Below are positions 6,281-23,000 of a stretch of DNA of 33,093 nucleotides, in pieces (position 1 is the stretch's first letter; every line of letters begins with the position of its first letter). The notes under the pieces were generated by a model, which saw only the letters and a program-made list of their open reading frames with translations, did no database searches and had not been told where the DNA came from. The translations under genes were made by a program, and so were the position numbers. The stretch is from Octopus sinensis (Eukaryota). The stretch spans positions 1 to 33,093 of the forward strand of contig NW_021833383.1 in assembly GCF_006345805.1 (NCBI RefSeq), written 5' to 3'.

Positions 6281-6649
6281 TAGGGAATAAATCCAAATTT
6301 ACAAGGAAAAATCAGATTTAAGATTGAATCCAATTTATAGTAAAATATATATTATATCAAATTAGAGACAAAACCACTATTATGCAAATCAAACAAAGAA
6401 AGACTTAAGCCAATACATAAAAATTTATATAAATTAAAATTTAACATATGAATAACCACTACGATCGTTTCGTGTCAGACATCTTAGACTTCTTCAGGTG
6501 GTTTCAAAACCTGAATGTCCTAAGATGTGCTAACACGAAACGATCGTTAGTGGTTTTCATATTTAAATTTTAATTTATATAAATTATTTTATGTATTGGC
6601 TTAAGTCTTTCTTTGTTTGATTGCATAATAGTGGTTTGTCTCTAATTTG

Positions 6650-6655
<6 letters not shown>
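6281..6655. mobile_element. Penelope-like foldback remnant (~150-bp arms, ~70-bp tail) in (TA)n
   Basis: ~6350-6500 is the imperfect reverse complement of ~6508-6655; hammerhead at the apex. Confidence 0.75.
6454..6503 (-). ncRNA. Minimal type I hammerhead ribozyme
   Basis: Minus strand AACCAC-CTGAAGA-AGTCTAAGATGTCTGACAC-GAAAC-GATC-GTA-GTGGTT: 6-bp stem I, intact core, palindromic stem III, GUA site. Confidence 0.8.
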
Positions 6656-6687
<32 letters not shown>

Positions 6688-6689
<2 letters not shown>

Positions 6690-7016
6690 GGCTCAGTTGT
6701 TAGAGCATAGAGCTTACGATTGTGAGGTTATGAGTTCGATTCCCAGACCAGGCTGTGTGCTGTGTTCTTGAGCAAGACACTTTATTTCACATTGCTCCAG
6801 TTCACACAGCTGTAGAAATGAGTTGCGACATCACTGGTGCCAAGCTGTATCGGCCACTTTGCCTTTCCCTTGGATAACATTGCTGGTGTGGAGACGAGGA
6901 GGCTGGTATGCATGGACAACTGCTGGTCTTCCACAAACAATCTTGCCCTGACTTGTGCCTCGGAGGGTAACTTTCTAGGTGCAATCCCATGGTCATTCAT
7001 GACCGAAGGGGTCTCC
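6688..7016 (+). mobile_element. tRNA-derived SINE 'family C' with CORE-like domain
   Basis: GGCTCAGTTGTTAG A-box-like, GAGTTCGATTCCC B-box, CTTGAGCAAGACACTTTATTTCAC core-like segment. Confidence 0.75.
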
Positions 7017-7093
7017 TCCTCTCCTCCTATATATATATATATGTATGTATGTATATAATATAAAGAATATATAAATATATGCATATATACATA

Positions 7094-7296
7094 ATGTGAC
7101 CTCGTGTGTACCATTTCCGATTTTTTTTTTCCTCTGTCTTCCCTTCTCTGGATCTTTCCTTCTCCTATCTTTCCGACGAAGAGCTCCGCTCGAAACGTTA
7201 AACCCTCCTTCTTTCCTGAGCGTCCAATAATACTATATTTGTTCCACGTCCTCGCGTTGTTGTGTTTTTTTGTGCCTTCTTGTTTGGATTAACTTT
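7094..7296 (+). mobile_element. Penelope-like remnant with hammerhead variant at 7170-7202
   Basis: TTT-CCGACGA-A-GAGC-TCC-GCTC-GAAACGTT-AAA; second copy at 32681-32851, relative at 11520-11667. Confidence 0.65.
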
Positions 7297-7464
7297 ACAT
7301 ATCTACATATATATGTACGGTTTAAGTAATTGAGATTCAAGTGAATTCTAATGAATTCACATGAATATGGTCCTAACTTGGATGCACCGGAAATCTTATG
7401 GTGTTAACCATACGACAAGTGGGGTGATTACAAATAGGAAAAAAGCAACAAGAATGGATTAAAA

Positions 7465-7550
7465 TCTCGGTACAATTGTTTCGTACGAGGACATCTTAAT
7501 AAGCTACAAAAATGCAGTAAATACAGATGGCTCGTACTCGTCAGCCGAAA
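7465..7550 (-). ncRNA. Type I hammerhead ribozyme with long stem II, in a Penelope-like remnant (~7315-7782)
   Basis: Minus strand TTTCGG-CTGACGA-GTACGAG...CTCGTAC-GAAAC-AATT-GTA-CCGAGA: canonical core, 7-bp stem II plus CATCT/AGATG extension. Confidence 0.88.
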
Positions 7551-7997
7551 AACATCAGAGATTCCCAAACATCAAAAGGGGTAGATACAAATGAGGGTGT
7601 AAGTTTAACTGCATTGAAGAAAGTTCGATTCCTGGAGATCCGATGAAAGGTCTTGAACTTACAGAATTTGTGCATGTCCATATATAGCTCATAGTGAATT
7701 GTTAATCAAGTTATGTGAAGAAATTTTGGATACAGACATGCGAAATTTCTGAGAATCCGAGTAAGAAGCAAAGTGACTGTCATATATATGTATATATGCA
7801 TGTATATATGGGTATAGGATATCAAAAAAAAACATTGAACACAGTGAGAAACGAAAACATAAAAACAAAAACATAGAAACAAACTTTTTTTTGGACAACG
7901 AAAAAAACAAACAGAGAAACGAGACACGCAACATAAAGAATATTCAGATCATTACTCTTTGTTCTTCTTTGGCACACTTTGATAGTAGAGTGACCAT

Positions 7998-8453
7998 GCC
8001 GCAGGAGTGGCTGTGTGGTAAGTAGCTTGCACCAACCACATGGTTCCGGGTTCAGTCCCACTGCGTGCATCTTGGGCAAGTGTCTTCTGCTATAGCCCTG
8101 GGCCGACCAATGCCTTGTGAGTGGATTTGGTAGACGGAAACTGAAAGAAGCCTGTCGTATATGTGTATAATATATATATATATATTATATAATATATATA
8201 TGTATGTGTGTGATATGTTTGTGTGTCTGTTTTTTCCCCCTAGCATTGCTTGATACCGATGCTGGTGTGTTACGTCCCCGTCACTTAGCGGTTCGGCAAA
8301 AGAGACCGATAGAATAAGTACTGGGCTTACACAAAGAAAAGTCCCAGGGTCGAGTTGCTCGACTAAAGGTGGTGCTCCAGCATGGCCGCAGTCAAATGAA
8401 TGAAACAAGTAAAAGAGTAAAAGAGTAAAGAGTAAAGAGTTAAGAGTAAAGAG
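7998..8453 (+). mobile_element. SINE family A, full length
   Basis: Similarity to 783-1195. Confidence 0.85.
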
Positions 8454-8570
8454 TATGCCAGAAAGAAAAATGGCATGATCAGGCTCAAACTTCAACCACG
8501 TGACCACAATAGTACCAACTATAAACACGCATGCGCAGAAGGTAGTGTGACCATAATAAATACAGAAAAA

Positions 8571-8958
8571 AAGGCGGCGAGCTGGCAGAAACGTTAGCGC
8601 GCCGGGCGAAATGCGTAACTGCATTTCGTCTGCCGTTATGTTCCGGGTTCAAATACCGCCGAGGTCGACTTTGCCTTTCATCCTTTCAGGGTCGATAAAT
8701 TAAGTACCAGTTATGGACTGGGGTTGATGTAATCGACTTAATCCATTTGTCTGTCCTTGTTTGTCCCCTCTGTGTTTAGCCCCTTGTGGGCAATAAAGAA
8801 ATAGGTATTTCGTCTGGGTTCAAATACCACCGAGGTCGATTTTGCCTTTTATCCTTTCGGGGTCGATAAATTAAGTACCAGTTACGCACTGGGGTCGATG
8901 TAATCGACTTAATCCATTTGTCTGTCCTTGTTTATCTCCTTGTGGGTAGTAAAGAAAT
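8571..8958 (+). mobile_element. SINE family B, dimer
   Basis: Head AGGCGGCGAGCTGGCAGAAACG plus two central/tail units. Confidence 0.85.
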
Positions 8959-21185: not shown

Positions 21186-21346
21186 TATATATACACACAC
21201 ACACGTGTATATTATGTATGTATGCATTATATATATATATATACCGGAGTAAACACATAAATGTGAAACAAGGTGGAAAAAGAGTACTCAAATACCAGTG
21301 GTAGAGTAATATGCTTTATTTAAAGCAGCAGAAAATTCAACAAAAT

Positions 21347-21384
21347 CTGTTACCCTGAGTTTCTCATTGCCGTTCATCAGACAG
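21347..21384 (-). ncRNA. Minimal hammerhead ribozyme, mirror copy
   Basis: Minus strand CTGT-CTGATGA-ACGGCAATGA-GAAAC-TCAGG-GTA-ACAG. Confidence 0.6.
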
Positions 21385-21400
21385 TTTTTGCTAGAAAAAA

Positions 21401-21438
21401 CTGTCTGATGAACGGCAACGAGAAACTCAGAGTAACAG
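21401..21438 (+). ncRNA. Minimal hammerhead ribozyme
   Basis: CTGT-CTGATGA-A-CG-GCAA-CG-A-GAAAC-TCAGA-GTA-ACAG; GNRA-capped stem II with A-A mismatch at its base. Confidence 0.7.
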
Positions 21439-21587
21439 ATTTTGTTGAATTTTCTGCTGCTTTAAATAAAGTATATATATATATGAATAAAAACGTTTTT
21501 TTAAACAATATTAATAGCGTTCTGTCTATCGCTATACAAATCCATCATTTTTTGCTAAAATGTCGTATTGACGAGTTTCGTTTTTTC

Positions 21588-21673
21588 ACTTTCCCGAAGA
21601 GAATATTGCATTGTTTATACCTTTTATTCTTTTGAATAGTATCAGTGGAATTTTCGAAACATGTGTCGAAAGT
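21588..21673 (+). ncRNA. Type I hammerhead (U4C core variant) in a Penelope-like remnant (~21485-21872)
   Basis: ACTTTC-CCGAAGA-GAATATTGCATTG...CAGTGGAATTTTC-GAAAC-ATGT-GTC-GAAAGT; 6-bp stem I, GUC site after 21667. Confidence 0.78.
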
Positions 21674-22417
21674 AAAAATACTTGTTTAAACCTGCGTTAA
21701 CTCCATTTTTTATTCATATTATTCAAAATATTCAACGTAAACACGAAGTTTCAACCTTTATAAACAAGGAGTTACAACCTCTTTACTTGTGAGATTTTTG
21801 CTGCCCTGGTAACTATTTATTTATTTTTCCGTGTTAATTGTTAACAAGGTAAAAATACACTCATCTATTTATATATATATATATATGTATAAAAATTATA
21901 TATAAAGAAACAAGAACGTGAAATACACAAAGAGACGAACACAAAAAATGGACGGGTCATTCGAAGCCTTTAATCTTCAGTCAGAAACCGGATCATCATA
22001 GCAAATTTCGGCTGATTAATCCTGATATTGCTCCGACACGGCCAGCCCCAATGAAAAACTAAGCTGTGAGCATTAGATTTCTTGGAAAAAGGATCGAATG
22101 TATACGAAACAAGGACAGAAAAACGGACGAAGCCACACGAATATAAATACAAAAAACAAAAACAAAAATAAGAATAAAAACAAGAATGGTAATAACAGGA
22201 TAACAGCAGGTGTCTTACGAATTTAGGAAAATTTAGACAAATTTAACTTATCTAGCAGGCGTGTTTGGAAAAATTGCCTTTTCGGCAGACGGGGAACGAT
22301 GTTGAGCGGGCTGCGGTCACAAACGAAATGGCTGGTTATTCAGCAGGTCACATGAGGGTAGATATATATATATTTATCCATCTATCTGCCTGTCTATATT
22401 TACATATATATATACAT

Positions 22418-22740
22418 ATAAAAAGCACCATCCGAATCGTGGCCAATGCCAGTGCCGCCTTGACCGGCTTCCGTGCCAGTGGCACGTAAAATGCACCAAT
22501 CCGATCGTGGCCATTGCCAGACTTGCCTGGCACCTGTGCAGGTGGCACATAAAAAGCACCCACTACACTCATGGAGTGGTTGGCATTAGGAAGGGCATCC
22601 AGATGTAGAAACACTGCCAGATCAGACTGGAGCCTGGTGCAGCCTTCTGGCTTCCCAGATCCCCGGTCGAACCGTCCAACCCATGCTAGCATGGAGAACG
22701 GACGTTAAACGATGATGATGATGACGATGATGATGATGAT
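22418..22740 (+). mobile_element. Family D element
   Basis: Modules plus (GAT)n tail. Confidence 0.8.
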
Positions 22741-22743
22741 GTG

Positions 22744-22778
<35 letters not shown>

Positions 22779-22783
22779 ATATA

Positions 22784-23000
22784 TATTAGAAGGTTTGGAG
22801 TTGATGTACATGTATTATGTATTAGAAGAAATGAGGTACTCAGAAATTCGGATGGTTTTATATTTACAGATATTTATTTGTATATTACATGTTTTTATAT
22901 ATCATATATCGTATATTAGCGCTTTCGTCCATTCTAGTGGAGTCTTCAAACTGAACTAAGTTTTTGCAGGAATTTTGACTCTTTTTATAGTATTATTGAA
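22784..23000 (-). mobile_element. Penelope-like remnant with degenerate hammerhead (22917-22949)
   Basis: Minus strand TTGAAGA-CTCCACTAGAATGGAC-GAAA-GCGC-TA; palindromic AGCGCT, C3 mutated. Confidence 0.6.

Follow-up and report, generated by a model that had tools for sequence, protein, structure and literature searches.

Hammerhead motifs in an Octopus sinensis contig probably mark the terminal repeats of Hydra- and Neptune-type Penelope-like retrotransposons

Hammerhead ribozyme motifs are scattered through contig NW_021833383.1 of Octopus sinensis, the whole of which (33,093 bp) was analysed here and is called the window. The inserts that carry them fall into eight families (A to H), and six of the eight very probably represent the pseudo-long terminal repeat (pLTR) ends of longer Penelope-like elements (PLEs) that encode a reverse transcriptase (RT) and a GIY-YIG endonuclease, the short inserts being truncated cDNA copies placed at (TA)n. 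In these six families, the upstream sequence in longer genomic copies leads into an open reading frame (ORF) for RT with a C-terminal GIY-YIG domain. An earlier note on the same DNA had linked the motifs to PLEs, and the ORFs bear this out; its further proposal, that the inserts are dedicated non-autonomous mini-elements, is for the most part not supported, given the same ORFs and the variable 5' ends of the copies. The window thus contains mainly truncated pieces of PLE families that are new in themselves but belong to the known Hydra and Neptune types; elements of this kind have been reported from octopus before.

Results

A type I hammerhead descriptor that accepts domain II lengths of up to 65 nt, and tolerates one mismatch or a bulge of 1 nt where stem II begins, found exactly seven motifs in the window, each with the core and the stems I and II of the type I class to which they had been assigned. 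The putative hammerheads lie at 6454-6503(-) in family C, 7170-7202(+) in family F, 7465-7550(-) in family B, 18675-18753(+) in family D, 21347-21384(-) and 21401-21438(+) in family A, and 21588-21673(+) in family E. Those of families F and E carry the U4C substitution, and the five intact and two U4C motifs reported in the earlier note were all recovered. Dinucleotide shuffles of the window (200 per setting) gave a mean of 0.065 to 0.095 motifs and a maximum of 2, and the motif rate is thus not reproduced in shuffled sequence.

Could the motifs have arisen by chance in a genome full of repeats and low-complexity sequence? In favour of this, the descriptor is tuned to the motifs of the window, having been relaxed when a stricter version found none. 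Bare CYGANGA cores are not enriched (22 in the window, 16 to 21 in shuffles), and the Rfam search that had been suggested as a check returned no hammerhead among the best 150 of its 190 matches at E<=10. Against chance stand the excess of seven motifs over the two at most seen in shuffles and the 15,108 genome-wide matches to a generic core pattern, compared with 940 for its reversed control. By a count made by eye, stem III is self-complementary in 86 of the 100 first-listed generic matches, whose inner 4-mers are of 11 kinds, although the pattern never required such complementarity, and the motifs hold the same pLTR position in related ORF-bearing elements. We give chance next to no weight; the hammerhead motifs are real and are repeated thousands of times in the genome.

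The seven motifs represent six insertions, because those at 21347(-) and 21401(+) are the two arms of one 232-bp insertion; the motif at 6454(-) and the damaged core at 6508(+) are likewise the arms of a second single insertion. The earlier count of at least seven unrelated families is correct in number, since the window holds eight, and is too strong as to relationship, since D and E (52% amino acid identity) and F and H are related pairs. Similarly, some of the copies described as decayed are indeed damaged (6508, 32735, and 11734, which belongs to the same group as 22917), whereas the core at 22917 is a natural variant: UUGAAAA or UUGAAGA, that is, U3-A8 or U3-G8, occurs in 17 of 22 family G copies with this stem II. 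Nor does decay fit the copy at 11552, whose family H has A6 in none of 37 cores.

The longer genomic copies, which we refer to by locus number, have the layout pLTR-ORF-3' untranslated region-pLTR, and a hammerhead lies on both sides of the ORF in L071, L124 and L194. Of ten longer family A loci read for ORFs, six carry part or all of a single ORF. L071 has a pLTR-ORF-pLTR arrangement with a period of 3,345 bp, and L074 contains an open frame of 723 codons, the first 16 of which derive from an inversion junction. The family A protein has RWK at position 49, DKT at 125, YRDD, CxCx5C, a GIY-YIG-type motif, CxxC and CxH, and its look-alikes in the Atlas are RT/GIY-YIG/HTH_animal clusters at 0.96-0.99. 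The family B ORF has DKT, the CxCx5C linker (L124) and a Pfam GIY-YIG match (E=2e-4) just under the cut-off. A 3,650-bp unit of family D is linked to an ORF, as is family E through an open ORF piece of 464 amino acids; in the longer E copies some 100 bp separate the end of the ORF from the downstream part that matches the window fragment at 21492..21871. The proteins of A, B, D and E share 29-52% mutual identity, and all have CxxC and CxH near the endonuclease end and, as judged by eye, no CCHH. For family C, a single locus of 33 (L190) has an endonuclease with CxCx5C upstream of the hammerhead and in the same orientation. Both extended loci of family G (L300, L301) have an RT (Pfam RVT_1, E=2e-8), a CX4CxxC linker and a GIY-YIG domain upstream of the hammerhead on the same strand, in frameshifted copies. 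Endonuclease matches in L139 and L150 were rejected as ORF links because they are located downstream.

Two other features of the ORFs were observed. Long asparagine- or serine-rich inserts lie between RT and endonuclease in the B and D ORFs of L121, L122, L124 and L192-L195, those of family B reaching 35% asparagine in 200 amino acids; asparagine-rich inserts have likewise been described in rotifer Penelope (PMC3846280). Comparison of L071:1600-5170 with public contigs showed mostly single-base homopolymer gaps that are common to several runs, and some of the ORF frameshifts may therefore be assembly errors.

The Hydra clade has been defined by a single ORF with RT and C-terminal GIY-YIG, RWK, DKT in place of DKG, a CxCX5C linker without CCHH, CxxC/CxH, (TA)n targets, a hammerhead in the pLTR and a length generally below 3 kb (PMC8557442). 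From their motifs, the Atlas clusters and a comparison by eye with published Hydra proteins, families A, B, C, D and E are likely Hydra-type PLEs, and the linker pattern makes family G a likely Neptune-type PLE.

Several observations weigh against the assignment of six families to full-length PLEs. Pfam found no match in the A and D ORFs and a search of the PDB with the A ORF was blank, so that RT identity rests on the motifs, the Atlas and the by-eye comparison. D and E do not have the CxCx5C linker of the Hydra type; the pieces of these two that were examined do not extend over the RWK/DKT region. The A and D units, at 3,345 and 3,650 bp, exceed the length given for Hydra. The family C link is one locus whose endonuclease frame ends early, and the long C loci L188 and L189 contain no PLE ORF; nor do the long family B loci L123, L125, L126 and L127. 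F and H have no ORF link in the loci seen. The tails described below (about 60-160 nt) are longer than the published 30-40 nt. Finally, the copies were selected by hammerhead-containing queries, a choice that would under-sample any that begin at the cleavage site; no 5' end was seen there in this biased sample.

The structure of the copies was read from 30 family A copies taken in position order. Their upstream lengths and inversion junctions vary, their 3' ends are of two kinds, of which one bears a tail some 65 nt long, and a (TA)n run follows in 30 of 30 (read from the display), in keeping with the (TA)n targeting proposed earlier. The TA run recurs in the sampled copies of other families. 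Measured from the cleavage site, the two discrete 3' ends fall at +42 and +102 in A, +40 and +161 in B, and about +65 and +224 in D, in copies that were not de-duplicated and are biased to those containing the hammerhead. The inserts span both sides of the cleavage site, with ends 40-220 nt downstream of it. Many copies carry an inverted arm. The two arms agree at a variable site in 20 of 20 A copies, and they agree at subfamily sites in every pair compared from B (17) and from C (5), where the spacers measure 98-4,144 bp; this implies that both arms came from one source at each insertion. Of 59 family A arms, 35 stop 4-17 nt upstream of the core, and this cluster may reflect either a start site or a hot spot of snap-back.

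Alternatively, the palindromic inserts might be fold-back elements, or DNA elements resembling miniature inverted-repeat transposable elements, that are copied as fixed units with the hammerheads riding along. Forty scored matches do cover the entire 231-bp palindrome of family A at 96-100%. However, these were ranked by likeness to the query, and in position-ordered copies the A arms can be as little as 6 bp or more than 3,000 bp apart, and a partner arm is often missing. The palindrome as a fixed unit was a product of best-match ranking and was dropped when the variable junctions were seen. Together with the spliced copies of family C, which reveal an RNA step, these data make the fold-back explanation very improbable.

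Family C has a GT-AG intron of 1,305 or 1,288 nt that ends 5 nt before stem I. Of 36 family C arms, 17 are spliced and 11 unspliced, the other 8 being uninformative; each of the three domain II subfamilies includes spliced as well as unspliced arms. No spliced arm retains more than 28 nt upstream of the donor, while the unspliced L188 and L189 have more than 150 nt in common above it. This pattern points to templates that were spliced sense mRNA leaders, some of the resulting copies lying in head-to-head pairs. It does not fit the antisense template proposed earlier to explain why PLEs retain introns (PMC3846280). An intron ending at helix I is known in the Drosophila virilis Penelope (PMC4209133). 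Public contigs assembled from four runs presumed to be RNA cover the A element and have neither molecule ends nor a clear splice joint; they were not used as evidence.

Family F behaves differently in that no ORF was found in about 40 loci, in 3.7 kb of extra sequence upstream of L229 or in the loci L296-L299. The 5' end sits 74-87 nt upstream of the core in 31 of the 32 selected copies and in 5 of the 7 incidental ones. F, and perhaps H, are likely short non-autonomous derivatives moved in trans. A more specific version, for which we see an even chance, is that F alone (perhaps with H) is a PLE derivative that resembles a short interspersed element (SINE) and carries a crippled hammerhead, which is compatible with the PLE origin of the other families. 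The 4,999 genome matches of F, its clustered 5' ends, the failure to find an ORF and the rarity of inverted pairs in the first 100 listed matches argue for it. On the other hand, the selected copies were picked by a full-length query, two copies reach about 250 nt upstream, and the family C leader copies, which come from an autonomous element, also show clustered 5' ends. The alternative is that F copies are leaders of an autonomous element outside the sampled loci.

One F locus, L235, contains four head-to-tail units with U4C, about 220 bp apart with TA runs between them. The array could have formed by successive insertions into a single microsatellite or be of the retrozyme kind, and its retrozyme-like look is a further point against a purely PLE-based account. 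We also weighed the hypothesis that the families, all of them or the majority, consist of dedicated non-autonomous retrozymes spreading by hammerhead excision, circularisation and reinsertion. The inserts are short, numerous and recently spread, one such array exists, and a preprint derives animal retrozymes from PLE pLTRs (10.64898/2026.07.22.740005). Yet six families lead into ORFs, none of the window motifs lies in a tandem array, and the inserts straddle the cleavage site. In addition, U4C, which lowers activity in vitro (PMC3088659), is present in 81 of the 100 first-listed F matches. A retrozyme reading of the inserts is thus not supported, and we regard such an origin for all or most families as very improbable.

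Predicted stem III pairing is 0.18 or less in all seven monomers, as is expected of dimer-type motifs, and dimer-type minimal hammerheads have been reported as inactive monomers and weak dimers in vitro (PMC4209133). The G10.1-C11.1 pair is present in B, D, E, F and H and is a mismatch in A, C and G (C-C in G). U4C is found in 28 of the 29 family E motifs displayed (copies chosen by likeness to the window copy), some of them beside an open ORF piece; the same change, while reducing activity in vitro, permitted viroid infectivity (PMC3088659).

In families B, D and E, domain II is 54-57 nt long and differs in sequence, and its predicted fold consists of a basal helix, a bulge, a second helix, an internal loop and an apical hairpin. 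Because a MAFFT alignment of the three placed B out of register, the pair count was restricted to D and E, which came out 98.3% paired, with two pairs changed on both sides. Support from this comparison for the stem covariation claimed earlier is weak: each change is a single event between two families, and 239 of 500 shuffles reach two as well.

Genome-wide, family A has 2,313 exact 40-mer matches and family C 246 exact 22-mer matches, and patterns for B and D (the latter covering the 3' half only) have 532 and 3,024; the reversed control gave 0 in each of these and for the F pattern. The floor is about 25,000 motifs in 2.72 Gb, or 1 per 110 kb. In 501 kb of sequence flanking other insertions, a sample biased toward repeat nests, 24 motifs were met incidentally, or 1 per 21 kb (0-3 in shuffles). 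With 1 motif per 4.7 kb, the window is 4 to 20 times as dense as the genome and is a local high; the rate of about 1 per 3 kb given for it earlier does not hold genome-wide. The large radiation that the earlier note envisaged is borne out, since at least 12 further motif types were seen in the flank sample and the generic-pattern listing. Different families adjoin within one TA tract at 21245-21871 (A and E), 7092-7785 (F and B) and 11514-11860 (H and G). Nesting of insertions in shared TA tracts likely explains the local density.

The individual insertions are TA-rich at one or both ends, as had been noted, with sizes of 154-681 bp rather than the 150-470 bp first given. The Hydra-type family C insertion (6254..6657, both strands) is an inverted pair with its damaged partner at about 6508-6552(+), the long 3' end on the left and the short one on the right. 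An F insertion of about 200 bp (7092..7297, +), a candidate non-autonomous copy with a minimal hammerhead, is followed by a Hydra-type B 3' fragment (7311..7785, -) with a 55-nt domain II and the long 3' end. Family H, the relative of F, occupies 11514..11667(+), where a hammerhead-like fold at 11553-11588 has A6 replaced by U. At 11678..11860 (both strands), a family G relative consists of an inverted tail and a forward copy whose damaged hammerhead has its core at 11734. The Hydra-type D insertion (18418..18820, both strands) is an inverted pair with a 54-nt domain II, its minus arm holding the motif's 3' half only. The Hydra family A insertion (21245..21476, both strands) has two 83-bp inverted arms, each with a hammerhead, and a 65-bp left tail, and the fragment at 21492..21871(+) is a 3' fragment of family E, Hydra-type and related to D, with a 55-nt domain II. 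A Neptune-type G 3' fragment (22787..23467, -) carries the U3 core variant in a hammerhead at about 22915-22952. The hammerhead of the second F copy (32679..32851, +) has its 5' half deleted, and a G 3' tip at 117..191(+) is without one.

Three other repeats in the window resemble these insertions in some respects. An inverted pair of 125 bp at 195-570, with a one-sided extension of about 100 bp, has a PLE-like layout within TA repeats, and no hammerhead core was found in it; with its relatives (L110/L111, L132, L228) it is possibly a PLE family without a canonical hammerhead. A TA-flanked repeat at 21880-22370(-), with relatives in L145, L160, L172 and L294, has CUGAAGA and GAA about 11 nt apart and no standard stem III. 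The repeat at 7790-7945 has longer relatives (L008, L057, L160, L226, L276, L285) in which GAAA precedes CUGANGA, with a possible open stem II (a type II-like order) and no convincing stem I; the window copy ends before the motif.

The rest of the window consists of transposon pieces, SINE-like repeats and microsatellites. None of its 51 stop-to-stop frames was recognised as a host exon. A Tc1-like transposase remnant lies at 28525-29351(-) (Pfam DDE_3, E=1.5e-13), and 27400-28500 appears, by eye, to be another DNA-transposon remnant. Four tandem arrays, at 3382-4299 (period 184/167 bp), 12765-13649 (332 bp), 26326-27085 (about 105 bp) and 30294-31045 (3 bp), contain no hammerhead motif.

Discussion

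Families A to E resemble the Hydra clade (PMC8557442) in their RT and GIY-YIG domains, RWK/DKT, the CxCx5C linker (A, B and C), CxxC/CxH, (TA)n targets and pLTR hammerhead, and also in their inverted 5'-truncated copies, the tail and the 10.1-11.1 mismatch found in several of the motifs listed for that clade. Stems I and III of the Hydra-2_aMil hammerhead are identical to those of family A (PMC8557442). Hydra-1_Obim of Octopus bimaculoides is listed with a hammerhead and a (TA)n preference (Craig et al. 2021, PMC8557442); the hammerhead and protein sequences of the window families differ from it, as compared by eye. Unlike the clade as published, the octopus has at least five such families, each present in hundreds or even thousands of copies; their units measure 3.3-3.7 kb, their tails are 60-160 nt long and, in D and E, the linker cysteines are missing. 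The domain II of B, D and E (54-57 nt) also contrasts with loop 2 of the listed Hydra motifs, which is at most 10 nt, although two plant PLE-X motifs in the published hammerhead table have long loops (PMC8557442). Family G shares with the Neptune clade an RT, a GIY-YIG domain and a CX4CxxC linker (the Neptune linker being CX2-5CxxC), and a microsatellite bias has been proposed for that linker (cited in PMC8557442). It departs from the clade in its U3-A8/U3-G8 core and its C-C at 10.1-11.1; U3-A8 has been reported in the Cercyon PLEs of Schistosoma (PMC4209133).

Minimal PLE hammerheads are known to be variable, to number thousands per genome and to occur mostly singly or on opposite strands 100-700 bp apart (PMC4209133). 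The octopus motifs share with them (Cervera and de la Pena 2014) the many families, the high copy number, the palindromic helix III, the unpaired base before G10.1-C11.1 (F and H) and the intron that ends at helix I. They differ in having U4C in most of F and nearly all displayed E motifs, A6U in H and the long domain II of B, D and E. Retrozymes are described as tandem units with canonical hammerheads (PMC7229834; 10.64898/2026.07.22.740005). The window families share with non-LTR retrozymes (Cervera and de la Pena 2020; Li et al. 2026) the type I hammerhead, repeats of 150-450 bp and an animal host genome, and likely an origin from pLTRs, but they are not tandem, their hammerheads are not canonical and they are mostly tied to ORFs. 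A 2026 octopus repeat annotation reports 31 recently active Penelope-like families, and its main text, as available, names neither hammerheads nor Hydra (PMC13282606); a squid genome paper gives 235 Rfam hammerheads (PMC6962438). We found no paper on these families, on the long domain II or on spliced leader copies, in a search that left aside Repbase, Dfam and subscription papers, which may hold them.

How might the short inserts arise? A lizard PLE protein has been reported to cut and extend both strands of AT-rich DNA in vitro, priming at two internal RNA sites whose interval equals the tail and using uncleaved RNA; hammerhead mutants inserted normally, and cleavage took place only with the protein present (PMC11167929). 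By analogy, the octopus PLE protein would cut both strands at (TA)n, and reverse transcription would be primed within the RNA, past the hammerhead, at either of two sites, one yielding the short end and the other the end with a tail. The shortest inserts would then in many cases be copies of mRNA leaders that run from a start site through the spliced intron and the hammerhead to a priming site; this step is inferred here. The leader templates would be RNA that the hammerhead had not cut, and F, perhaps with H, would be short derivatives mobilised in trans. The earlier note thought that the motifs could cut host pre-mRNA or yield small circular RNAs; published data (PMC4209133, PMC11167929) argue against strong hammerhead cleavage, and the window contains no recognised host exon. 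We think it likely that the hammerhead is a passenger of low activity, dependent on dimers or on protein and dispensable for insertion.

These ideas can be joined in a single proposal, which we advance tentatively and with a little less than even confidence: that most short inserts are copies of the spliced, uncleaved 5' leaders of sense PLE mRNA, produced afresh with every insertion by two-site priming, that some leaders (F) became independent and SINE-like after losing catalysis, and that B, D and E form a Hydra subgroup with a conserved three-tier domain II of 55 nt that standard descriptors miss. If it is true, PLE hammerheads, perhaps including the "half-core" cases in Naiads, have been under-counted. 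The long domain II families expose a blind spot of current descriptors and could supply constructs with which to probe the function of PLE hammerheads. Those young families in which U4C is fixed provide a natural test of the role of catalysis in their spread. The spliced head-to-head C copies bear on the older antisense-template proposal for PLEs (PMC3846280). For the octopus, the tens of thousands of hammerhead-like motifs in the genome are very probably, for the most part, the debris of active PLEs and not a new class of ribozyme element.

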